From: Candidatus Falkowbacteria bacterium
GTDB lineage: Bacteria; Patescibacteriota; Patescibacteriia; Patescibacteriales; UBA12465
DNA length: 64,000 bases
Reading direction: 5' to 3'
Assembly: GCA_016432645.1 (NCBI GenBank)
Contig: CP066698.1
Coordinates: 901,062 to 965,061 of the forward strand
Below the pieces are notes generated by a model, which saw nothing but the letters and a program-made list of their open reading frames with translations, did no database searches and was not told where the DNA came from. Position numbers and translations under genes: made by a program. Positions 1,426 through 40,562 of this stretch are shown one piece after another (position 1 is the stretch's first letter; every line of letters begins with the position of its first letter).

Positions 1426-3993
1426 ATGTTAAAAGATTGGCCGGAGTTGGATCAAATATCGCTTTTGGGGGTTAAGCAGTCTTTTCAGGCTTTAAATAGC
1501 GGGCCCAAAGGATTAAAAGATGCCGAAGTTGATTTAAGGCGAAAACGCTTTGGCGCTAATCAATTAGTTTTAGAAAAAAAACATCAAGCTCTGCGTAATT
1601 TGTTGGGCAAATTTTTAAGTCCGGTAATTTTGATTTTAATAATCGCCGGCTCTTTATCTTTGTTTTTTCATGATCGACGTTCGGCAATTGTAATTTATGT
1701 CATGGTTTTTTTGAGTATTATTTTAGATTTTATTCAAGAGTATAAATCGGCTAAAGCGGCGGCAAAATTACAGGAAAAAGTGGTGGTAAAAATAGAAGTT
1801 TGGCGCGACGGCCAAAAACGGCTTTTAAAATCCGCTGAGTTGGTACCCGGTGATTTAATTTCTTTAAGCGTCGGCTCGATCATTCCCGCTGACTGCCGTT
1901 TAGTTGAGGAGCATGGCTTATTTACCAATGAATCATCATTAACAGGTGAATCGTTTCCGGTTGCCAAAACCGATGCCGCTTCTAAAAATAAGGAGAATAT
2001 TTTATTTGCCGGGACTAATATCGTCAGCGGTTATGGGACGGCTTTAGTGGTGCGTACGGGCGCTAAAACTGATTTTGGTCAAATTGCCGCTAATCTCTCA
2101 TTGACCGAAGGTCCGACAGAATTTGAAAAAGGGATTAGGAGTTTTAGTATTATGGTCAGCCAGACCATTTTAATTTTGGTAATTGTCATTTTTTTTCTCA
2201 ACACTATTTTTAAAGGTTTTGACTGGTATAATTCTCTGTTATTTTCTCTGGCGCTCGCGGTCGGGTTAACCCCGGAATTATTGCCGATGATTGTTTCGAT
2301 TACGCTCGCCAAAGGCTCGCTGAGCATGTCTAAACACGGAGTAATTGTTAAGCGCCTAAACGCTATCCATAGTTTTGGTGCGATGAATATTTTATGTACC
2401 GATAAGACAGGAACTCTTACTGAGAATAAAATAAAATTAGTCAAGAATGTTGATATTTTCGGAACAGAAAGCAAGTTAGTTTTGGAACAAGCATATTTAA
2501 ATAGTTTCTTTCAAAGCGGATTAGTCAATCCGTTGGATGAGGCGGTTTTAAAAATAAAAATAAATATTATCCCTGGAGCCTATAATAAAATTGGAGAAAT
2601 CCCCTTTGATTTTAGCCGGCGCCGTTTAGCCGTTATTTTGCAAGCCAAGGCCGCGGCTAGCAAATTTTTCATTATTAGCAAGGGTGCTCCAGAATCCTTA
2701 TTTAATCTTTGTAATAAATATAACCAAGACGGTAAATTAAAAGAATTTTCCGCAATTGCCAAGGCCAAGGCTCTGGATGAATATCAAGCTTTAAGCCGTG
2801 ATGGTTTTCGAGTTTTGGCGATTGCTTATAAAGAAATCTCGGTCGGGAAAGAAGAGATAAAAAAAGAGAAAAAAGATATTTTAGCGCACGCCGCTGATTT
2901 TGAAAATGATATGATTTTGAGCGGTTTTATTGCTTTTTTTGATCCGCCTAAAAAAGCAGTCGCCAAAGCTATTAAAGATTTAAATCGCCAGGGCGTAGAG
3001 GTTAAGATTATTAGCGGCGACAATGATTTGGTAATCAAAAAAATCTGCCAAGAAGTCGCGTTGCCAGTTGCCGGTTATTTAAGCGGAGAAGAGGTGGAGG
3101 AATTGAGCCCGGAAGAGCTGGTCTTGAAAGTAAAAAATATTTCTGTTTTTTATCGCACCTCGCCTCAGCAAAAAGAAAAAATAATAAGAGCTCTAAGAGC
3201 GAGCGGCAACGTTGTCGGTTATTTAGGAGACGGGATTAATGATGCCTTACCGCTTAAAGCGGCTGATGTTGGAATCTCGGTTAATAACGGCGTTGATGTC
3301 GCTAAAGAGGCGGCTGACCTGATTTTATTAACTCATGATTTATCAGTTTTATCTTTGGGGGTTGATAGCGGCCGTAAAACTTTTGCCAACACCTTGAAAT
3401 ATATTCTAATGGGCTTAAGCTCTAATTTTGGCAATATGTTTTCTGTAGCCGCTGCCTCTTTCTTATTGCCCTTTTTGCCAATGACGCCTTTACAGCTACT
3501 GCTTAATAATTTTTTGTATGATTTTTCCCAGACCACTATTCCGAGTGACAATGTTGATTCCGAAATGATTGCTAAGCCGCGCCACTGGAGCACTAAAAAT
3601 ATTAGGAATTTAATGATTTTTTTGGGACCGATTAGTTCAATTTTTGATATACTGACTTTTATTATTTTATTTTTTGTGTTTAAACTTAATGAGAGCCAAT
3701 TTCAAACTGGCTGGTTCTTGGAATCTTTAGCTACGCAGATTTTAGTCATCTTCGTTATCCGAACAAAAAAAATTCCATTTTTACAGAGCCGTCCTAGCCG
3801 GTTGTTGTTTGTCTCTATTTTATTGGTCTTAGCCATTGCCTGGATGTTGCCGTTTATGCCATTCGCCTCTTATTTTGGTTTTGCTGCGCCGGATTATAAA
3901 GTTATGCTAGCCATTATGGTACTCGTGGCTGCCTATCTGATATTTACCCAGAAGTTAAAAGGCTATATCTTTAAAAAATTTTTGGATTACTAA
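1426..3993 (+). CDS. mgtA: magnesium-translocating P-type ATPase (MgtA-like)
   Basis: 855 aa. It carries the phosphorylation motif CTDKTGTLTENK, the hinge GDGINDALPLKAADVGISV, the MgtA-like segment LLNNFLYDFSQTTIPSDNVD, and multiple TM helices. Confidence 0.85.
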   Translation: MLKDWPELDQISLLGVKQSFQALNSGPKGLKDAEVDLRRKRFGANQLVLEKKHQALRNLLGKFLSPVILILIIAGSLSLFFHDRRSAIVIYVMVFLSIILDFIQEYKSAKAAAKLQEKVVVKIEVWRDGQKRLLKSAELVPGDLISLSVGSIIPADCRLVEEHGLFTNESSLTGESFPVAKTDAASKNKENILFAGTNIVSGYGTALVVRTGAKTDFGQIAANLSLTEGPTEFEKGIRSFSIMVSQTILILVIVIFFLNTIFKGFDWYNSLLFSLALAVGLTPELLPMIVSITLAKGSLSMSKHGVIVKRLNAIHSFGAMNILCTDKTGTLTENKIKLVKNVDIFGTESKLVLEQAYLNSFFQSGLVNPLDEAVLKIKINIIPGAYNKIGEIPFDFSRRRLAVILQAKAAASKFFIISKGAPESLFNLCNKYNQDGKLKEFSAIAKAKALDEYQALSRDGFRVLAIAYKEISVGKEEIKKEKKDILAHAADFENDMILSGFIAFFDPPKKAVAKAIKDLNRQGVEVKIISGDNDLVIKKICQEVALPVAGYLSGEEVEELSPEELVLKVKNISVFYRTSPQQKEKIIRALRASGNVVGYLGDGINDALPLKAADVGISVNNGVDVAKEAADLILLTHDLSVLSLGVDSGRKTFANTLKYILMGLSSNFGNMFSVAAASFLLPFLPMTPLQLLLNNFLYDFSQTTIPSDNVDSEMIAKPRHWSTKNIRNLMIFLGPISSIFDILTFIILFFVFKLNESQFQTGWFLESLATQILVIFVIRTKKIPFLQSRPSRLLFVSILLVLAIAWMLPFMPFASYFGFAAPDYKVMLAIMVLVAAYLIFTQKLKGYIFKKFLDY

Positions 3994-19867: not shown

Positions 19868-19907
19868 TTAGCACTCTATTGACTTGAGTGCTAATTTTGT
19901 TTATAAT
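19868..19907 (+). promoter_or_regulatory. perfect CIRCE operator (TTAGCACTC-N9-GAGTGCTAA) interlocked with a TTGACT-N17-TATAAT promoter
   Basis: CIRCE spans 19868-19894. TTGACT at 19879-19884 lies in the CIRCE spacer, and TATAAT is at 19902-19907. hrcA starts at 19928. Confidence 0.9.
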
Positions 19908-19927: not shown

Positions 19928-20620
19928 ATGATTTCCGAGCGTAAACAATTTATTCTAGAAACCATAATTAAAGAGTATGTGAAGACGGCACAGCCCGTAT
20001 CTTCCGGCGTTTTGGTGGACAAATACAAATTGGATATTTCACCGGCCACCGTCCGCAACGAAATGATGGAACTGGAAGAAGAAGGCTATATCTATCAGCC
20101 GCATACTTCTGCCGGCCGGGTGCCGACCGAGATTGCTTATGAGTTGCTTTTGGAAACGATAAAAGACGTTAAAAAAAAGCGCAGCCTTAAAGAAGCGGAT
20201 GAGAAAAATTTAGAAAACATTTTTAATAAAGAGGGCGTAGCCTTGCGGCAAACCGCTAAAGCTATTTCCGAATTGGCGAGCGGCGCGGTTTTTTGGGCTT
20301 TTAATAAAAATGATTTATATTATACCGGTCTTTCCAATTTATTCTCTCAGCCGGAGTTTAAGCAAGTGGATGCCGTTTGTGATGTTTCGGGAATTATTGA
20401 TCGCATGGAAGAAATAATCGATGATATTTTTGAAGAGTTGCCGGAAGGCAGCCAGACTTTAATCGGTTCCAAAAATCCCTTCGGTAATTTTCTAAGCGCC
20501 GTCCTGGTTAAATACCGGCATGAGGGCGCTCATGGCTTGTTTGGAATTTTAGGGCCGATGCGCATGGATTACGGCCATAACTTGGCGCTGGCCGAATTTA
20601 TTAAAAAGAAATTTGATTAA
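19928..20620 (+). CDS. hrcA: heat-inducible transcription repressor HrcA (short, 230 aa)
   Basis: It has an N-terminal wHTH (ETIIKEYVKTAQPVSSGVLV...SPATVRNEMMELEEEGYIYQPHTSAGRVPT) and the conserved C-terminus GILGPMRMDYGHNL. CIRCE lies directly upstream. Confidence 0.85.
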   Translation: MISERKQFILETIIKEYVKTAQPVSSGVLVDKYKLDISPATVRNEMMELEEEGYIYQPHTSAGRVPTEIAYELLLETIKDVKKKRSLKEADEKNLENIFNKEGVALRQTAKAISELASGAVFWAFNKNDLYYTGLSNLFSQPEFKQVDAVCDVSGIIDRMEEIIDDIFEELPEGSQTLIGSKNPFGNFLSAVLVKYRHEGAHGLFGILGPMRMDYGHNLALAEFIKKKFD

Positions 20621-20624
20621 AATT

Positions 20625-21248
20625 ATGGAAGAGTTAAAAAAAGGAATTTATCGTCATTATAAAGGCGGCGAATATCGGATTTTAAACGAAGCGCTTAATT
20701 CCGAAACTAAAGAAGAGCAAGTTGTTTATCAGGACCTTAAGAATGAATCTAAAATTTGGGTTCGTCCTAAAAAAATGTTTTTGGAAGAAGTGGAAGTCAA
20801 GGGAGTTAAAAAGGCGCGTTTTGAATTTTTAGCTACCGCCGATGAAACTTCTGAGGCCCTAGAACATCAATATAAGAGGGCTTTAGCCGATTATCACAAT
20901 CTGCTAAAGCAAAGCGCTAAGGATAAAGCTGATTTTGTAAAATATGCGCTCCAAGATTTCTTGCAGGATATTTTGCCGGTGTATGACCATCTTAAACTAT
21001 CTTTGCTGGGGTTGAAGGAGGAAGATAATAGTAATCCGTGGGCCGTCGGCGTCCGTCATGTCTTGAAACAGTTTAAAGATGTTTTAGAGTCAAAGGGAGT
21101 TATGGAAATTAAAACGGTGGGTGAAAAATTTGATCATAATACGATGGAAGCCATGGATGGCGCGGGTGAATTAGTTGATAAAGAAGTGATGCCCGGGTAT
21201 ATGTTAAATGGCCGCGTAATCAGGCCCGCCAAAGTAATTGTTAAATAA
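20625..21248 (+). CDS. grpE: GrpE nucleotide exchange factor with an N-terminal DUF1653-like domain
   Basis: The C-terminal part (ALADYHNLLKQSAKDK...FDHNTMEAM...GYMLNGRVIRPAKVIV) is GrpE-like. The N-terminal ~65 aa (GIYRHYKGGEYRILNEALNSETKEEQVVYQDL...IWVRPKKMF) resembles DUF1653. Confidence 0.8.
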   Translation: MEELKKGIYRHYKGGEYRILNEALNSETKEEQVVYQDLKNESKIWVRPKKMFLEEVEVKGVKKARFEFLATADETSEALEHQYKRALADYHNLLKQSAKDKADFVKYALQDFLQDILPVYDHLKLSLLGLKEEDNSNPWAVGVRHVLKQFKDVLESKGVMEIKTVGEKFDHNTMEAMDGAGELVDKEVMPGYMLNGRVIRPAKVIVK

Positions 21249-21748: not shown

Positions 21749-21828
21749 TCAGTAATTGATATTTCGGCCCTGAAATATTCGGGGCCGATAATCAGTTAGT
21801 GATTAACTAATTATAAAAATAAAAAAAT

Positions 21829-23805: not shown

Positions 23806-24891
23806 ATGTCCAAAGATTATTACGATATATTAGGGGTTTCAAAAACGGCCAGTCCCGATGAAATCAAGACCGCTTTTCGCAAAAAAGCACATGAGCATCA
23901 TCCGGATAAAGGCGGGGACGCGGAAAAATTTAAAGAATATAATGAGGCCTATCAAGTATTAGGCAATCCCGAAAAAAGAAAGCAATACGATCAATTCGGC
24001 TCCGCTTTTCAAAATGGCCAAGCCGGCGGCGCTAATTATGGCGGGTTTTCCGGTTGGCAAAACGGCGGCGGCTTCAATATGGATTTTGAAGATTTAAGCG
24101 AAATGTTCGGCGGCTTCGGCGATATTTTTGGTTTCGGTGGCGCTAATACGCGCGGCGGCGCTAAACGCCAAGCTCGCGGGCGCGATTTAGAATTAAATTT
24201 AAATTTGGATTTTAAAGAAGCGGTCTTTGGATTAGAAAAAGAAATTCAATTTTCTAAAAATATCACTTGCCATCACTGTCATGGCCAGGGCTACGAACCG
24301 GGAGCAAAAGTTGAAACCTGTACTAATTGTCGGGGGACTGGAAAAATTGCCCGTCTGCAAAGGACAATTTTAGGTAATATCCAAACGCAATCAGTCTGCC
24401 CTCATTGCGATGGCGAAGGCAAAATTTATAGTCAAAAATGTACTAGATGCAGCGGTTCCGGAGTTCATCATGAACAAGTCAAAATAAAAGTTAGAATTCC
24501 AGCCGGTATAAATAATGGCGAGTCAATTCGTCTAAGCGGCCAAGGAGAAGCTGGTCAGAAAGGCGCCTCAGCCGGCGATTTGTATTTGCGCGTTAAAATA
24601 TCTAACCACCCCCAGTTTATTCGTGATGGCTACGATATTAAAACAGAAGAAACGATTAGTATCCGACAAGCAATTCTCGGGGATAAAATTGATATTGAGA
24701 CGGTAAATGGACCTTTAAAGCTAAAAATTCCTGCCGGAACGCAATCCGGCACAATCTTTAAGCTAAAAGAAAAGGGAATTATAAAATTGCATAGCCGCGG
24801 CATTGGCGACCATTTTGTTAAAATAATAGTAAAAATACCTTCCAACCTTAGCCGAAAACAAAAAAATCTACTGGAAGAACTTGATATTTAA
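23806..24891 (+). CDS. dnaJ: co-chaperone DnaJ (type I: J domain, G/F region, zinc finger)
   Basis: DYYDILGV...HPDK is the J domain. A G/F-rich linker and four CxxCxGxG repeats ([32 protein letters not shown]) follow. Confidence 0.95.
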
Positions 24892-24904
24892 GACCTTGAT
24901 TTTA

Positions 24905-24932
24905 TTGACTTTTCGCTTAAAAATGCTAAAAT
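24905..24932 (+). promoter_or_regulatory. putative promoter TTGACT-N16-TAAAAT for the Cys-rich micro-protein gene
   Basis: TTGACT at 24905-24910 and TAAAAT at 24927-24932, 32 nt before the ATG at 24965. Confidence 0.45.
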
Positions 24933-24964
24933 AAGAGTGTTTATTATTTTAACCAAATAAAACT

Positions 24965-25174
24965 ATGAGTAATTGGTTTAAGAAGCTTTTTGGCGCCAAG
25001 GATTGTTGTTGCCATAAAGGCGAAGACTGTTGTCATAAAGGTGAAGACTGCTGCCATCACCAAGAAGAAAATAAGAACGAGGAAGCTGCGGCTCCGATGT
25101 CTGCTCCTGAAACCCCGGTTTCTAGTCAGGAAGCTCCTGTTGCCGACAATAACGAAGCTCCAAAAACAGAATAA
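24965..25174 (+). CDS. 69-aa Cys/His-rich small protein (CCHKGED tandem repeats); function unknown, metal binding hypothesised
   Basis: The product is MSNWFKKLFGAKDCCCHKGEDCCHKGEDCCHH followed by an acidic, Pro-rich tail. The gene has its own promoter-like element and a strong terminator. The two nucleotide differences between the full repeat copies are both synonymous. Confidence 0.6.
   Translation: MSNWFKKLFGAKDCCCHKGEDCCHKGEDCCHHQEENKNEEAAAPMSAPETPVSSQEAPVADNNEAPKTE
25007..25057 (+). repeat. in-frame 21-nt tandem repeat, about 2.4 copies
   Basis: Copy one is tgttgccataaaggcgaagac and copy two is tgttgtcataaaggtgaagac; a partial third copy begins tgctgccat. Each full copy encodes CCHKGED. 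Confidence 0.85.
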
Positions 25175-25194
25175 TTTTTTTAGGTTTAAAAGTT

Positions 25195-25220
25195 AAAAAG
25201 CGCGATTTTTCGCGTTTTTT
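25195..25220 (+). terminator. rho-independent terminator after the micro-protein gene
   Basis: AAAAAGCGCGA-TTTT-TCGCGTTTTTT: a GC-rich stem, a tetraloop and a T6 tail. Confidence 0.7.
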
Positions 25221-25237
25221 ACTTGATTAAGATATTT

Positions 25238-26092
25238 ATGATTATTGATACCCATGCTCATGTAAATTTTGCTGCTTTTAGGGATGATGCCGATGCGGTT
25301 ATCCGCCGGTCTCTAGATAATGAGACTTGGATGGTTTTGGTTGGTTCTGAATTTAAAACTTCTAACCGCGCCTTGAATTATGCCAATAAATATGAGAAGG
25401 GTGTTTATGCCGCTATTGGATTGCACCCGGTTCATTTGCAAGAGGGACTAATTGAAAATGATGATGATGAAAATGGTGAATATAGTTTTACCCCGCGAGC
25501 CGAGGAGTTTAATTATGGTAGTTACGAAAAATTGGCTAAATTTGAAAAAGTGGTGGCTATCGGAGAAATCGGCTTAGATTATTATCATCTAGATCCAACT
25601 CAAGACATAACAGCTATAAAGAAAAAACAGCAAGAAGTTTTTGCTCAACAATTAGTCTTAGCACAAAATTTAGATTTACCGGTGATTATCCATTGCCGCC
25701 AAGCACATGATGATTTATTGGCCATTTTACAGGATTTTAAAAAGGAATATGGTCATTTATTACCCACCGATCGTCCTTGGGGGGTTATTCATTGTTTTTC
25801 CGGCGACGAAGATTTGGCTTGGAAATACTTTAATCTAGGTTTGATTATCTCCTTTACTGGTTTAATTACTTTTAGCCAGCAATGGGATAATTTAATCAGA
25901 AAAACGCCGCTAGAAAAAATAATGGTCGAAACAGATACTCCTTACATGACTCCAGAACCTTATCGTGGCCAGAGAAATGAGCCGGTCTTAGTACAGTATG
26001 TGGCTGCTCGAATTGCAGAAATTAAGGGGATAAAGTTGGAAAAAGTAGCTGAAATTACCACGGCGACTGCTAGGGCCTTTTTTAGGATATAA
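25238..26092 (+). CDS. tatD: TatD-family metal-dependent hydrolase/DNase
   Basis: The MIIDTHAHVNF start is preferred over the TTG at 25223. GEIGLDY, VIIHCR, GVIHCFSG and ETDTPYM are present. Confidence 0.85.
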   Translation: MIIDTHAHVNFAAFRDDADAVIRRSLDNETWMVLVGSEFKTSNRALNYANKYEKGVYAAIGLHPVHLQEGLIENDDDENGEYSFTPRAEEFNYGSYEKLAKFEKVVAIGEIGLDYYHLDPTQDITAIKKKQQEVFAQQLVLAQNLDLPVIIHCRQAHDDLLAILQDFKKEYGHLLPTDRPWGVIHCFSGDEDLAWKYFNLGLIISFTGLITFSQQWDNLIRKTPLEKIMVETDTPYMTPEPYRGQRNEPVLVQYVAARIAEIKGIKLEKVAEITTATARAFFRI

Positions 26093-36150: not shown

Positions 36151-38529
36151 ATGTTTTCCGAACAACCAATTGTTATTTCGCCAGAGCAGGAAAAACAATA
36201 TGCCCTAGCGCCTGAACCTTCAGATCAGGATTCAAAGAGACCGATAAAGAAAATAATTTTAATTATTGCCTTGGTTTTGGCGGTGGTCGCTTTAGCATTC
36301 GCTATTTTTTTAATTGTTAAAAAATATCAAGTTAAGCCGCCAGTGTCTGTAGAGCCGACAGCGACGACTACGGTAGAAAATAACTTTAATTCTTCAAGTA
36401 CTTTGCCCGACTTGAGCAACCCGGACGGCACCGCCAGTTCTTCTGCTTCTACAACTTTGGCTAATTTAGCGGTGGAATATCTGGCTTTTACTGATTTTTA
36501 TCAAGCCCCCGATAATAATTTAGACTTTAAGATAGAGGATTATAGTTTGCCTCTTAATATCAAAAAAGACGGCATGAATTATTATGATTTGTCGCGGAAA
36601 TTAAATCTAGAGCCGGGAATAGCGAATCTTAATAATAGCGGGTTTGCAGTTGTTGATAATCCTTGGCAAAATGAAGCCAATGATTTTTATTCTATCTATC
36701 AGCGCTTAGATGAAAAACAGATTCCCGTTTTAATCACCTCGGATTTTTTAATTTATTACTATCAAAACACTCTTAAAAGCGTTTTTAAAGATATTGAAAG
36801 TAATATTTTTTATGACAATCTATGGTTGATTAATAAAGAGCTTTATAATTTGGCCAAGAATCGTTATGAAACCAGATTAGCCTCTATCGGCGATGTTAAT
36901 GATTCAATTTTAGAGGGGCAGCGTTTAGAGATGGCTTTTTTTGCTGTTTCTTTGGAGCTTTTAAAGCCGGATGCCGACCAGATATCAACCCAAGGAGCAA
37001 TTGATAATAAAAGTAAATTTAGCGCCGGTGATGTCGAAAGATTTTATTTGACTATCCCGCCTTATTTGAAAGATGATGTTGCTAAAGAGCTGGCCTTAAT
37101 AAAAGAGGGTAAGCAAAATACTAAATCTCCTAATCTGCTTTACAAAAAAAATTATGCTGATTTTATTGTTCCCGCCGAATATAAAATCGATGCCAAGCTT
37201 AATAATTTTTATTTGGCAACTAAATGGCTTAGTTCCACTTTTCCCCTAGAATATCAAAGCGGTACCTGTCCTAACTGTCTTTTGGATAAAGAAGATTGGC
37301 GTTTAAGCATGATTGCCGCCAGCTTGATAAGCACCGATTTCTCCAGTCGTCCCGATTTAAAAAATCGTTGGGCGAAAATATATAAGCTCATGGCCTTTTT
37401 TAAGGGTTTACGCGATGAAATAGATTATGTTAACTACCATGATTCGTTGGTAGCTTTATTTGGTGATAATTATAGCGTTGAAGATTTATTTGCCGACAGT
37501 AACCCAGAAGCAGCCTCTAATTTAGAAAAATTAAAAAATAAAGTGTTTGCTCATGATTATAAAATTATTCAGGGAGCAATCAGTAAAACTGATGCCAGTC
37601 TCCGGCCAACAATCGGCTTTAAAATGTTAGCCGAGTCTTATTGGCCCAATGATTATATTTTTAATCGTCTAACCTGGCCTTTAGTCGGCACTTATCAAGG
37701 GACTTCAACTAAAGTGGTCGGCGATGTTACCGCTTGTGATTATCAAAAAACAGTTAGGCGCTGCAATGGCTTCTCTATGGATATTGTCAATTTAATCCAT
37801 CCGCTTGCCGGCAATACTATATTTGATAAGAACACTAGATATACTAATTATCAAAAAGAAGCCGCCGGCTTAGTTTCCAGTCTTAGCGACCTTACTTTTT
37901 GGCACACCTCTAATTACTGGTCAACTTTAAGCATTATGAAGTCAGTATTGGCTGTGGATGTTAAAAAAATGCCGGTTTTTGCCGCCTCCAGCCAGTGGGA
38001 AGCGCAAAATTTAGAAACGGCCTCCGCTGCCTGGGTTAATTTGCAATTACCTTTGGAAAAATTTTCAGTTACCCCGGTTTTTACTGGACAGAGTTTGGGT
38101 AATTTTTCTCAGTATAACGAAAATGTCTACGTGGAGCCGAATTTACCCTTGGTGAATGAACTAATCGCGACTAATAATATGCTAGCCCAGATGTTCACCG
38201 CGCTTCGTCTTAATGAGGAGCTTAATTCGGCCGCCAAAAATCTTCAAGACATTGATAATGATTTAAAGGATATTCGTGAGATTATTATTAAAGAATTAAC
38301 CTCAGAAGAGCTTGACGAGCGCGACAGTGCAACTATTACCGACTTTGCCAGGAAGTTCACCGTTGATCAAAAAACTCGGGCCAGCCGAGTCTTGTCGCTC
38401 ACCTCTCCTAGCAAAACCACGATTAAGGAGAGTTTGGAAAAAATAAGATTGAAAGTTTTAGTCCACGAATCACAGGGTAATAAAGTTATTTCCGTCGGGC
38501 CGGTATGGGATTTTCAAGAAAGCCGTTAA
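36151..38529 (+). CDS. large membrane-anchored extracytoplasmic protein of unknown function
   Basis: 792 aa. A single N-terminal TM helix (KKIILIIALVLAVVALAFAIFLIV) precedes an ~730-aa soluble domain with no motif I recognise. The gap to mltG is 4 nt. Confidence 0.6.
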   Translation: MFSEQPIVISPEQEKQYALAPEPSDQDSKRPIKKIILIIALVLAVVALAFAIFLIVKKYQVKPPVSVEPTATTTVENNFNSSSTLPDLSNPDGTASSSASTTLANLAVEYLAFTDFYQAPDNNLDFKIEDYSLPLNIKKDGMNYYDLSRKLNLEPGIANLNNSGFAVVDNPWQNEANDFYSIYQRLDEKQIPVLITSDFLIYYYQNTLKSVFKDIESNIFYDNLWLINKELYNLAKNRYETRLASIGDVNDSILEGQRLEMAFFAVSLELLKPDADQISTQGAIDNKSKFSAGDVERFYLTIPPYLKDDVAKELALIKEGKQNTKSPNLLYKKNYADFIVPAEYKIDAKLNNFYLATKWLSSTFPLEYQSGTCPNCLLDKEDWRLSMIAASLISTDFSSRPDLKNRWAKIYKLMAFFKGLRDEIDYVNYHDSLVALFGDNYSVEDLFADSNPEAASNLEKLKNKVFAHDYKIIQGAISKTDASLRPTIGFKMLAESYWPNDYIFNRLTWPLVGTYQGTSTKVVGDVTACDYQKTVRRCNGFSMDIVNLIHPLAGNTIFDKNTRYTNYQKEAAGLVSSLSDLTFWHTSNYWSTLSIMKSVLAVDVKKMPVFAASSQWEAQNLETASAAWVNLQLPLEKFSVTPVFTGQSLGNFSQYNENVYVEPNLPLVNELIATNNMLAQMFTALRLNEELNSAAKNLQDIDNDLKDIREIIIKELTSEELDERDSATITDFARKFTVDQKTRASRVLSLTSPSKTTIKESLEKIRLKVLVHESQGNKVISVGPVWDFQESR

Positions 38530-38530
38530 G

Positions 38531-40507
38531 TTAGCGTGTATATTTGAAAATAAAAATTTCGTTATTGCCAATTAGGCTCCAAGAGTCGGCGCTTAGTTTA
38601 GCGGCAGCAATTATCTTACCGCTTTCATTCCAATATTTATTGATAATCAAATAAGCCTCATTGGTCCCGGCCATATCCATGGCATCTAACATGGTTTTGC
38701 GGCTGGGATTTTTATAAACCATATCCAGAAAATATTGATATAAGGTGCCGCCAGTCGGTATTGGATAAAAATAAATATCTTCGCCTTTGGCGGTTTTAAA
38801 ATAGTGGTTAAATCCTAAAAGTTTTAGCGCGCCGGCGGAAACTTGCTGATTAGCTAGAACAATGTAGGGTTGTTCGGTTTCGGCTTCTATTTTTTGGACG
38901 GCCTCTAAGTCAAAAATACTGGTGCTATAGCCGCGGGAATTAAAATATTTATCAAAACGCGGATAGGCTAGGTATAAGGAAATAACCATAAAGGCAGTTC
39001 CTAGAGTTAACCAAATAAACTTTAGCAATTTTTCTTTTTGAAAATTTATCTTACCAATTAACCAGCTAATCGCCAGAGCGATAAAGGGCAGGAAAAAGAT
39101 AATGATAATATTTAGAATGCGCTTGGAATACCCGCTCTGTTCGTAGGCGATGATTTGTTCAAAATTTATTTGGGTGCTAAAAATAAAAGCCAAGATTAAA
39201 GAAGAGTTTATTGAGAGAATGCCGCGGATTGCGTGTTTTTTGTTCTCGGAAAGTTGAGTTTGGTTTTTTTGATAGAATAAGGCGATTCCAGCGGTGATTA
39301 AGACGGCGATTAAAAGTCTATAATTATAAAAAATAAAATAGCTTAAATTTAGCAGCCAGTTTTCTTGGCCGGCCGCCCCTAATTTAAAAATATCCTGCAG
39401 GGTTGTTTCAAGAATTGTTAAATTAAATTTTAAATTAGCCATTTTTCCACCGCTGATGATAAATAGAGCTAGCGGCAAAATAACCGCCCCGCCTGATAAA
39501 ATAAGAGCGGAAATAATTTTTTGATATTTGACGCGTAGTTTTGAAAAATGGGTTTTAAATATCAGCCAAGTACTCCAAATTAAGACCGGAATGCCGGAAA
39601 GGGGATGAATGGCTGCCGCCGCTAGAGAAAAAATTAAAGCCTCAGCTTTTCTCCGACTAGTCAAGCCATTGGCAACTGCGATAATAACGAAGATATAGCT
39701 AAAATTTTGGGGGGTGCTGACGATAAATAACGGTAAGCTTAAAGTAAGAACGATTAGCGTCCCTAAAAAATTTACGGAATCATTTTTTTCATCACTCGGA
39801 TTTAAAAATTTAAATAATTGATAAACTACTGGCGGCAGTAAACAAGCGGCGGCTAAGGGGACTAAGAATTTATTTAGGGCATAAATCGAAATTCCCAGGA
39901 TTTTATGGATAATTATGATAAATCCGTATTCGCCCAGGTAATACGGCGTTTTTGGAGAAATAAAACCTGCCTGATTAATGGTTTCCATGGCGGCTTGATG
40001 GATGAAAGGATCAAAGCCATAACCGACCTTATAGACGATAGTCGCTATTGCCAGACTTAAAAAATAATGGGCGGCAACTAATATTAATTTCGTCTTTCTG
40101 GCCAATTTGGCGTCCACCAACAAAACTATCAAAGTTAGGGAACTAAGAGCGTAAAACCAGAAAAAATGGCTGCTGACAACTTCCCAGGGGGATATTAGCG
40201 GCCGACCGCTGCGGCCTTGAATTAATTCCCAAGCGGCCGCCGCTAGGATTATTAAATAAATAATGGCCGTTTTTGATATTTTTTGCTGTTTAACGGTTGT
40301 TTCTTTTATTAAATCAGAATCATGGCTGCTACTCAGAATTCGGTATTTGTTTAAAAAAATTAGGCTAACTATAGATAAAATAATTGTTATAATGACGGCC
40401 CCGAAGTTAAGCTGATAAAAATAATAAATAACCGCGCTAAAAAATATTAGCAAGGCGACAATAATTCTTAAGTTTTGGCTTATTTTTGCTTGTTTTAAGT
40501 ATCCCAT
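38531..40507 (-). CDS. large polytopic membrane protein with a C-terminal soluble domain (possible GT-C-like glycosyltransferase)
   Basis: About 658 aa from the ATG at 40507 (the track TTG is at 40549). There are 13 or more hydrophobic segments and a ~130-aa C-terminal soluble region. Confidence 0.55.
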   Translation of the reverse strand: MGYLKQAKISQNLRIIVALLIFFSAVIYYFYQLNFGAVIITIILSIVSLIFLNKYRILSSSHDSDLIKETTVKQQKISKTAIIYLIILAAAAWELIQGRSGRPLISPWEVVSSHFFWFYALSSLTLIVLLVDAKLARKTKLILVAAHYFLSLAIATIVYKVGYGFDPFIHQAAMETINQAGFISPKTPYYLGEYGFIIIIHKILGISIYALNKFLVPLAAACLLPPVVYQLFKFLNPSDEKNDSVNFLGTLIVLTLSLPLFIVSTPQNFSYIFVIIAVANGLTSRRKAEALIFSLAAAAIHPLSGIPVLIWSTWLIFKTHFSKLRVKYQKIISALILSGGAVILPLALFIISGGKMANLKFNLTILETTLQDIFKLGAAGQENWLLNLSYFIFYNYRLLIAVLITAGIALFYQKNQTQLSENKKHAIRGILSINSSLILAFIFSTQINFEQIIAYEQSGYSKRILNIIIIFFLPFIALAISWLIGKINFQKEKLLKFIWLTLGTAFMVISLYLAYPRFDKYFNSRGYSTSIFDLEAVQKIEAETEQPYIVLANQQVSAGALKLLGFNHYFKTAKGEDIYFYPIPTGGTLYQYFLDMVYKNPSRKTMLDAMDMAGTNEAYLIINKYWNESGKIIAAAKLSADSWSLIGNNEIFIFKYTR

Positions 40508-40533
40508 AGCTTTGTTTATATGATAGCAAATTC

Positions 40534-40562
40534 TTGCTAAAATTGGCAATTTCGGATAACAT
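40534..40562 (+). promoter_or_regulatory. putative promoter TTGCTA-N17-TAACAT inside the 59-nt divergent region
   Basis: TTGCTA at 40534-40539 and TAACAT at 40557-40562. It overlaps the TAGCAA-N4-TTGCTA inverted repeat at 40524-40539. Confidence 0.35.

Follow-up and report, generated by a model that had tools for sequence, protein, structure and literature searches.

A stretch of 64,000 nucleotides from the genome of a Candidatus Falkowbacteria bacterium (contig CP066698.1, positions 901,062 to 965,061; hereafter the window, in whose own numbering all coordinates are given) contains, between dnaJ and tatD, a gene for a cysteine-rich micro-protein of 69 amino acids (24965..25174, forward strand). 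Comparison with the orthologous loci of other species showed that the gene is real and that its peptide is under purifying selection; it is restricted to the lineage of Candidatus Falkowbacteria, ultra-small bacteria of groundwater, and is dispensable. We tentatively propose, with a probability of about 0.45, that the product is a peripheral-membrane micro-protein in which a helical anchor is followed by a metallothionein/Hpn-like thiolate site and an acidic disordered tail. Both membrane binding and metal binding we infer from the amino acid sequence.

A short gene under purifying selection

An initial annotation of the DNA had described at this position a self-contained set of protein-coding features (ORF, tandem repeat, promoter and hairpin), all of which were found to be present. 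The open reading frame (ORF) starts with ATG, and the interval given above includes the stop codon; the peptide quoted in the annotation matched the translation exactly (MSNWFKKLFGAKDCCCHKGEDCCHKGEDCCHHQEENKNEEAAAPMSAPETPVSSQEAPVADNNEAPKTE). The gene and the parts of its product are the following, with the basis of each assignment in brackets.

24965..25174, forward strand: coding sequence of the 69-residue micro-protein (ORF call, orthologous ORFs at the locus, dN/dS, in-frame indels)
24971..24994, forward strand: codons 3-10, N-W-F-K-K-L-F-G, an amphipathic helix, conserved and similar to membrane-targeting sequences (conservation, AlphaFold2, likeness to MinD/SecA)
25001..25060, forward strand: codons 13-32, DCCCHKGEDCCHKGEDCCHH, the Cys/His cluster adjoining the helix, with 7 Cys and 4 His (composition)
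25007..25057, forward strand: 21-nt tandem repeat in 2.4 copies encoding CCHKGED / CCHKGED / CCH (Tandem Repeats Finder)
25061..25171, forward strand: codons 33-69, the acidic tail of Glu, Ala, Pro, Thr and Ser, predicted to be disordered and ending in ...PKTE (charge, model)

The composition of the peptide is as the annotation had described it: an amphipathic N-terminus, which has a net charge of +3, a core of 20 residues (D13-H32) containing all 7 Cys and 4 His, and an acidic tail of net charge -7 for which no structure is predicted. Cysteine makes up 35% of the core and 10% of the whole protein, and the 4 His are the only ones among its 69 residues. The repeat lies in register with codons 15-31, and its full copies differ solely at TGC/TGT and GGC/GGT, both synonymous, as had been noted before. 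The same protein is also called on a 6.2-kb Logan contig from run SRR12113407, which is 100% identical to the window. A search for paralogs within the window found none. An overlapping ORF of 68 codons (24990..25196) was rejected because it lies in another frame than the conserved one.

A homolog search with the single sequence, which is short and of low complexity, gave just one relative, and the family was uncovered via synteny. The neighbouring TatD protein was scanned against one genome per species, which yielded 80 loci; their labels, where informative, are those of metagenome-assembled genomes (MAGs) of Falkowbacteria or Patescibacteria, some automated assemblies being evidently mislabelled. 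In 58 of the 80 species dnaJ and tatD are separated by an ORF of 42-98 codons whose N-terminal motif is conserved, and divergent variants occupy the same position in three further species, giving 61 family loci. The DNA of the window is ~87% identical to that of two MAGs from Patescibacteria / Candidatus Falkowbacteria (L004 and L005). A supposed hot-spot of divergence at the micro-protein gene was dropped, since the "100%" identity of TatD to that of L004 proved to be a best-segment artefact and the region as a whole is ~87% identical. In several clades the gene is missing; there dnaJ abuts tatD, or the promoter alone is left, with or without the hairpin.

The gene must be regarded as coding, not as a noncoding repeat, because the frame is unbroken in the relatives and the copy number of the repeat moves in exact steps of 21 nt: the ORF of L005 is that of the window minus one repeat unit, and CC-x5 units occur in relatives once, twice, three or four times. 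The ratio of nonsynonymous to synonymous substitution rates (dN/dS) was 0.06-0.45 in 21 pairwise comparisons, wherever dS was unsaturated, and the pooled proportions of changed sites in pairwise family comparisons were 0.15 for nonsynonymous (pN) and 0.58 for synonymous positions (pS). In the DNA alignment of close relatives changes are mostly in third positions and the indels measure 18 and 9 nt; all indels in the compared relatives are multiples of 3. The annotation had argued that selection acts on the peptide and not on the DNA repeat, and had named frameshifts in relatives or variation as a noncoding repeat as findings that would speak against it. Neither was seen, the frame being intact, with a family ORF at the same position in 58 species, and the variation consisting of in-frame indels and synonymous changes.

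It could be argued that no protein is encoded here and that the region is a repeat without coding function or specifies a small RNA, since the ORF is short, of low complexity and contains a tandem repeat in its DNA, and since the promoter and the 5' untranslated region are better conserved than the ORF itself. The comparative data effectively refute this: the frame is kept in 58 other species, the substitutions are mostly synonymous, the indels come only in multiples of 3, and Rfam has no match for the region.

The micro-protein is a member of no named family, which upholds the statement of the annotation. Profile searches with the 69-residue product found no family in Pfam at E<=10, none in PADLOC and PHROGs, and in NCBIfam only a chance match (HisIE, E=0.35). 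A sequence search of the PDB at E<=10 gave no match, and the search of positions 24000..26000 against Rfam gave only chance matches below threshold. In two collections of 5.8 billion and 1.8 billion proteins no homolog was found outside Patescibacteria, and all the homologs found are unnamed or "hypothetical" proteins of Patescibacteria without Pfam domains. Literature searches on Falkowbacteria with cysteine-rich proteins, and on small proteins of Patescibacteria with metallothionein, returned nothing relevant.

The amphipathic N-terminus, the cysteine cluster and the acidic tail

The family alignment contains a single well-conserved block, the N-terminal N-W-[FL]-K-K-L-F-G-x-K. Its Trp is present in 58 of the 61 loci and its Gly in 55, where it is encoded by all four Gly codons; the pN/pS of the block is 0.31, with synonymous sites saturated. 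The initial annotation had taken the CCHKGED repeat as the defining feature, which cannot be maintained, the repeat being one of several interchangeable Cys patterns and absent in six orthologs. Judged from the alignment, the conserved core of the family is the N-terminal MinD/SecA-like amphipathic motif and not the Cys repeat.

In this motif W4, F5, L8 and F9 would lie on one helix face, opposite K6, K7 and K12. AlphaFold2, run on a 24-sequence alignment, predicted a helix at residues 3-9 only and a tail without structure. The membrane-targeting sequence of E. coli MinD is KGFLKRLFGG (PMC5471200), and SecA docks to lipids via its N-terminal amphipathic helix (bioRxiv 10.1101/2021.03.26.437172). 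When WFKKLFGA is set against FLKRLFGG of MinD, four of the eight positions are identical and four conservative; the charge is +3 versus +4 and the hydrophobic moment 0.31 versus 0.27. The helix thus has the structural attributes of a MinD/SecA-type motif, being terminal and predicted helical with one hydrophobic and one Lys face, and likeness to these proteins extends to motif, charge, hydrophobic moment and terminal position. The remainder of the micro-protein is unrelated to MinD and SecA, and membrane binding is here a prediction from sequence.

How widely the motif is used became apparent from a search of metagenome contigs with a degenerate DNA pattern for NWFKK[LF]FG, which found at least 120 stretches, of which 120 were sorted by context. 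Fourteen are Cys-rich small ORFs, every one upstream of a tatD of the Falkowbacteria type (80-83% identity to the TatD of the window); 13 are other small ORFs and 14 large proteins, both with the motif at the N-terminus, and in 28 it forms the extreme C-terminus of large proteins with signal-peptide-like starts. Among the 120 matches listed the motif stands at a protein terminus in 69. One carrier is a genuine SecA that begins with MNWFKKLFG, the identical 8-mer (L203:151-2658, minus strand; SecA_DEAD, E=1.6e-118), and an adenylate kinase (L090:3681-4307, minus strand) bears MFIINWFKKLFG as an N-terminal extension. Since the same 8-mer occurs on SecA and on adenylate kinase, it is a terminal amphipathic segment of unrelated proteins. 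Its terminal placement would fit a portable amphipathic membrane anchor, which supports, without proving it, an association of the micro-protein with the membrane.

The 28 large proteins with a C-terminal motif have a module in common, C-x-N-N-F-E-C-S-S-N-V-C-x4-C-I-S-E-G-F-L-x-K-I-I-N-W-F-K-K-L-F-G-G, in which a four-Cys knot precedes the 8-mer; carriers include the metagenome loci L089, L092, L094, L095, L098, L104, L109, L117, L143, L145 and L163. Pfam recognizes no family for this module, which looks like an undescribed C-terminal anchoring domain.

The Cys cluster follows the helix motif closely, starting 0-7 residues past it in 66 of 72 family members. The orthologs contain 0-10 Cys, most often 4-7, in patterns that differ widely: CC-x5-CC heptads (CCHKGED in the window, CCSKHDD in another clade), CxC runs (CKCHCEKC), CxxC runs (CEHCDHC), or a single CCCH with extra N-terminal cysteines alongside (MCKCAWLKKLLGLKKECCCH). 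The interchange of CC, CxC and CxxC patterns indicates that selection may act on composition and not on a fold; such free interchange is, by analogy, the mode of evolution of metallothionein-like sequences. The CC-x5 heptads occur in two separate Falkowbacteria clades with different spacers, and may be either ancestral or the result of convergent repeat expansion. In the CCSKHDD clade (L022, L028, L034; ~2840-2992) the ORF abuts tatD and there is no hairpin. The tails of the family, acidic in all cases and with few hydrophobic residues, have a median of 34 residues, a median net charge of -5 and 4% hydrophobic residues; they consist of 20% E, 11% A, 10% K and 10% P and end in a weak C-terminal consensus, E-K-x-[QEK].

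Metal binding by the cluster can reasonably be predicted from its composition. The nearest chemical parallels come from Helicobacter pylori, namely Hpn and the tail at the C-terminus of HspA (GroES). Both are low-complexity segments, small or appended, with acidic residues around a vicinal Cys-Cys that has His after it, as in GEDCCHKGEDCCHH of the micro-protein, and their CC/CCH anchors (EEGCCHGHHE in Hpn, GSCCHTGNHD in HspA) bind Zn(II) and Ni(II) with greater strength than sites of the CH/HC or purely His type (PMC10221980). The chemistry of these anchors makes the suggestion of the annotation, a metallothionein-like buffer or a redox sensor, more plausible. HspA also has an association with a chaperone locus in common with the micro-protein gene. 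However, there is no detectable sequence homology, and Helicobacter belongs to a different phylum; His runs dominate Hpn and are lacking in the micro-protein, and both Hpn and HspA are without the membrane-targeting helix and the long acidic Pro/Ala tail. By homology and poly-His composition the micro-protein falls outside the Hpn proteins, with which it has only the acidic-CC-H motif in common.

Metallothioneins (SmtA/BmtA, MymT and metallothioneins in general) are similar in their small size, in the variation of CC, CxC and CxxC while remaining Cys-rich, and in a predicted lack of structure without metal. The micro-protein differs in that it matches no metallothionein profile, adds an aromatic amphipathic N-terminus and an acidic tail of 37 residues, and has some Cys-free orthologs.

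In the proposed mechanism residues 3-10 (NWFKKLFG) would form a short cationic amphipathic helix, placing the protein against the cytoplasmic side of the membrane. The vicinal Cys/His cluster would then come to lie at the interface, where it could provide a thiolate site for soft or borderline ions (e.g., Zn, Ni, Cu, Cd or Fe); how many repeats there are would determine its capacity, which slippage of the 21-nt repeat would alter. The disordered tail, acidic and with much Glu, Ala and Pro, would project into the cytoplasm. The physiological role would presumably be one such as metal buffering or hand-over of metal at the membrane.

Several findings weigh against this proposal. Six orthologs are cysteine-free yet keep helix, acidic tail, promoter and terminator; on the TatD tree they are scattered over at least three clades (L024 together with L044/L052; L011; L029/L063), and two further orthologs have only 2 Cys. 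Because Cys-free orthologs exist, metal binding cannot be the function that all family members share. Neither a metal transporter nor a metalloregulator was found beside the gene, and the absence of the gene from several clades marks it as dispensable. The confidence of the AlphaFold2 model is low (mean predicted local distance difference test score, pLDDT, 56), and the resemblance to MinD and SecA over 8 residues is similarity at the level of a motif, not homology. A lone MinD-type helix, moreover, binds membranes weakly, and MinD needs dimerisation. One may speculate that a metal-bridged multimerisation of the micro-protein could strengthen the weak binding of its single helix.

The Cys-free orthologs suggest a different function for the family, residing in helix and acidic tail, the cysteines being accessory. 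The protein could be a polyanion at the membrane surface, or a regulator or decoy of DnaK/DnaJ, ATP synthase or TatD that binds through the lysine-flanked hydrophobic helix or the C-terminal E-K-x-Q/E; Cys would serve as a switch or for avidity, through metal or disulfide bridges, and not as a metal store. The retention of helix and tail in the Cys-free orthologs fits this explanation, as do the helix being the only strongly conserved segment, the weak consensus at the C-terminus and the fixed position of the locus between dnaJ and tatD-atp in every gene-bearing genome seen. We nevertheless consider it rather unlikely. The Cys cluster is kept in the same place by 66 of 72 members and is thus usually selected; no partner can be inferred, and as dnaJ abuts tatD in gene-free genomes the synteny may be historical.

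Somewhat more doubtful still is that the micro-protein is a thiol redox buffer or sensor at the membrane surface of an organism that has few antioxidant systems, the cysteines alternating between the thiol and disulfide states or being oxidised sacrificially, with metal playing no role. The density of thiols is high, and no terminator separates the gene from the CIRCE-controlled stress operon upstream. However, His and acidic residues are interleaved with the CC pairs (CCHKGED) in a manner typical of metal sites, vicinal Cys-Cys disulfides are strained, and Cys-free orthologs could have no such function.

Promoter, hairpin and the heat-shock neighbourhood

The elements around the gene are the following.

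24905..24932, forward strand: sigma-70-type promoter with -35 TTGACT (24905-24910), a 16-nt spacer and -10 TAAAAT (24927-24932), extended to TGcTAAAAT (24924-24932) (consensus scan)
24940..24964, forward strand: predicted short A/T-rich 5' untranslated region (UTR) without a Shine-Dalgarno sequence, from a putative transcription start (strongly conserved in close relatives)
25195..25220, forward strand: intrinsic-terminator hairpin of A5 (25195-25199), G, stem CGCGA/TCGCG (25201-25214, loop TTTT) and T6 (25215-25220) (sequence, folding)
25238..26092, forward strand: tatD-family hydrolase gene, context, starting 17 nt past the T-run (Pfam PF01026 on the orthologous gene)
19868..19894, forward strand: perfect CIRCE operator, TTAGCACTC-N9-GAGTGCTAA, overlapping the hrcA promoter (0 mismatches, 0 expected by chance)

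The promoter, which had been described as promoter-like (TTGACT-N16-TAAAAT), scored 10/12 in the consensus scan and has an extended -10 TG at 24924-24925. All 61 family loci contain TTGACT-N16/17-TGnTAnAAT 49-76 nt 5' of the ATG, which substantiates the earlier assignment, and the 100-nt bin with the promoter, 95-98% identical to L004/L005 against ~87% around it, is the best conserved of the region. The micro-protein is probably abundant in the cell. Only one of the 51 ORFs of at least 150 codons in the whole window has GGAG, GAGG or AGGA within 20 nt 5' of its start, the starts being preceded by A/T-rich sequence, and the host genome appears not to use initiation led by Shine-Dalgarno sequences. 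Because the genome generally does without them, the missing Shine-Dalgarno sequence at the micro-protein gene is uninformative.

The hairpin, the sole element of its kind in the window, forms with a pair probability of ~1.0 in the folded full predicted transcript. The annotation had called it a strong GC-stem/T6 terminator; "strong" is generous, since the stem has only 5 G/C-rich pairs, which A-U pairs extend. A perfect hairpin followed by a T-run is present in 48 of 59 loci, with varying loops and some compensatory stems, e.g., CACGC/GCGTG; in these 48 the CGCG core is kept across species. The median distance from stop codon to stem is 25 nt, and that from T-run to the ATG of tatD 18 nt across the loci (17 nt in the window). 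Because there is no room for a promoter of its own between T-run and start, tatD must depend on read-through, probably from the micro-protein promoter, and the hairpin may determine how much micro-protein transcript is made relative to that of tatD.

In species without the ORF the promoter (TTGACT...TGnTAAnAT) survives; in L039, L042 (~2760-3003) and L074 (2911-3003) it faces tatD directly, and in L010:2866-3003 promoter and hairpin are kept and the ORF is deleted. The ORF sits within what is otherwise the leader of tatD, and it possibly arose there.

This layout raised the question whether the ORF, as an attenuating leader that is translated, controls tatD and perhaps also the atp genes, its Cys codons sensing the supply of Cys-tRNA. 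The order of promoter, short ORF, terminator and tatD, which begins a median of 18 nt past the T-run without room for a promoter, is classical, the promoter survives the loss of the ORF, and the spacing of stop codon and stem is constant at ~25 nt. We regard the proposal as very improbable, since the whole peptide is under purifying selection and has a conserved N-terminal motif, the peptides vary from 42 to 98 residues, and at least 140 nt separate the Cys codons from the hairpin downstream of them. The hairpin probability is ~1 and no alternative antiterminator or complementary segment exists (only 8 of 59 ORFs contain CGCG), Cys-free orthologs keep the same hairpin, and tatD stands outside the pathways of cysteine and metals.

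Upstream lies the block hrcA-grpE-hsp20-dnaK-dnaJ, of which the dnaK-dnaJ part had been pointed out; from the end of dnaJ (24891) it is 14 nt to the -35 hexamer. The gene order around the locus is invariably PBP2-hrcA-grpE-hsp20-dnaK-dnaJ-X-tatD-atp, X being the position of the micro-protein gene. Upstream of hrcA the -35 hexamer (TTGACT) of a promoter scoring 11/12 lies inside the spacer of the CIRCE operator, and by this arrangement hrcA-grpE-hsp20-dnaK-dnaJ is, as predicted from sequence motifs, a textbook HrcA-controlled heat-shock operon in a genome of the Candidate Phyla Radiation (CPR). It is the only CIRCE of the window; a search for one at the micro-protein's own promoter found none. 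The forward strand was searched for canonical terminators (a hairpin with a T-run) from the hrcA promoter to the micro-protein gene, and none was found; because none follows dnaJ, the gene could receive heat-shock read-through.

Heat-shock transcripts thus probably run into the micro-protein gene, and the hairpin (25201..25220) would end both transcripts. In the proposed mechanism expression would be driven by the gene's own near-consensus promoter plus probable read-through from the CIRCE/HrcA-controlled dnaK-dnaJ operon; the hairpin would terminate the gene, and the downstream tatD would need read-through. The description of the gene as self-contained is therefore correct as regards its own promoter and its own hairpin, and has to be qualified in that no terminator separates it from dnaJ and its promoter is probably common to tatD.

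The conserved neighbourhood also bears on the idea that the ORF encodes the precursor of a ribosomally synthesized and post-translationally modified peptide (RiPP), or else a membrane-active peptide for export. In favour of it, the product begins with a short segment that is conserved, and the Cys-rich "core" after it varies. We find the idea hardly credible, as neither a modifying enzyme nor a protease or exporter is present in the conserved neighbourhood (dnaJ, tatD, atp genes), the peptide has no signal peptide and continues after the Cys region in a long acidic tail, and PADLOC and PHROGs gave no match.

Other features of the region were observed in passing. Between hsp20 and dnaK there is a GC-rich stem-loop without T-run (TCGGCCC...GGGCCGA, 21764..21790), which might serve for processing or stabilisation, or might weakly terminate transcription within the heat-shock block. 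The orthologous loci L084 and L085 encode a GrpE with an N-terminal DUF1653 domain, in L084 also with NUDIX, a fusion that would be unusual for a nucleotide-exchange factor and that applies to the grpE of the window (20613..21248) by analogy only. Elsewhere in the window are a type-II P-type ATPase (1426..3993), a DUF3160 protein of 792 residues (36151..38529) and, on the minus strand, an ORF of 658 codons without a Pfam match (38531..40549). The ATPase, the only P-type ATPase of the window, was rejected as a heavy-metal transporter because it is of the type-II (Ca/Mg/Na) class; it lies 21 kb away from the micro-protein gene.

Analogies and significance

Small membrane-associated proteins with an interfacial Cys cluster and a disordered polar or acidic region are found in eukaryotes, namely proteins of the CYSTM / CDT1 type and GAP-43-like proteins. 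CYSTM proteins, which are linked to stress and heavy-metal tolerance, are anchored by a C-terminal transmembrane helix; GAP-43 has a basic N-terminus, a Cys-Cys pair that is S-palmitoylated enzymatically, and a long acidic tail of Ala, Pro and Glu. These are analogies only, the proteins being eukaryotic and the micro-protein having no match in Pfam. We regard it as improbable that the micro-protein is a switchable membrane tether. In such a tether, bridging of the Cys clusters beside the weakly binding helix, driven by metal or by oxidation, would multimerise the protein and clamp it to the membrane, the surface of which would then carry a dense brush of acidic tails. S-acylation of the cysteines without an enzyme could act alike, and strains would differ in the setting of the switch through slippage of the 21-nt repeat. 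If this were true, the micro-protein would be a bacterial counterpart of eukaryotic proteins of the GAP-43/MARCKS type, with which an ultra-small symbiotic bacterium remodels its membrane surface, or regulates neighbours such as the F-ATPase, in response to metal or redox state.

To our knowledge no bacterial protein has been described that combines such an anchor with a thiolate site, as proposed for the peripheral-membrane micro-protein. The Patescibacteria (CPR) have tiny genomes, and most of their lineage-specific proteins are of no known function. The micro-protein is one of these: a real gene with a promoter among the best of its region and a product of simple three-part design. Should the inferences on membrane and metal fail, it would be an ordinary dispensable orphan micro-protein. 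The survey of the motif also points to NWFKKLFG as a portable terminal anchor across many unrelated proteins of uncultivated microbes. If the inferences hold, the micro-protein would be the first described bacterial metallothionein-/Hpn-like site tethered to the membrane by a helix of the MinD/SecA type; the one to four CC heptads found among close relatives would constitute a natural series on the tuning of capacity, and the family would show how metals or thiol stress are dealt with at the membrane of these bacteria.

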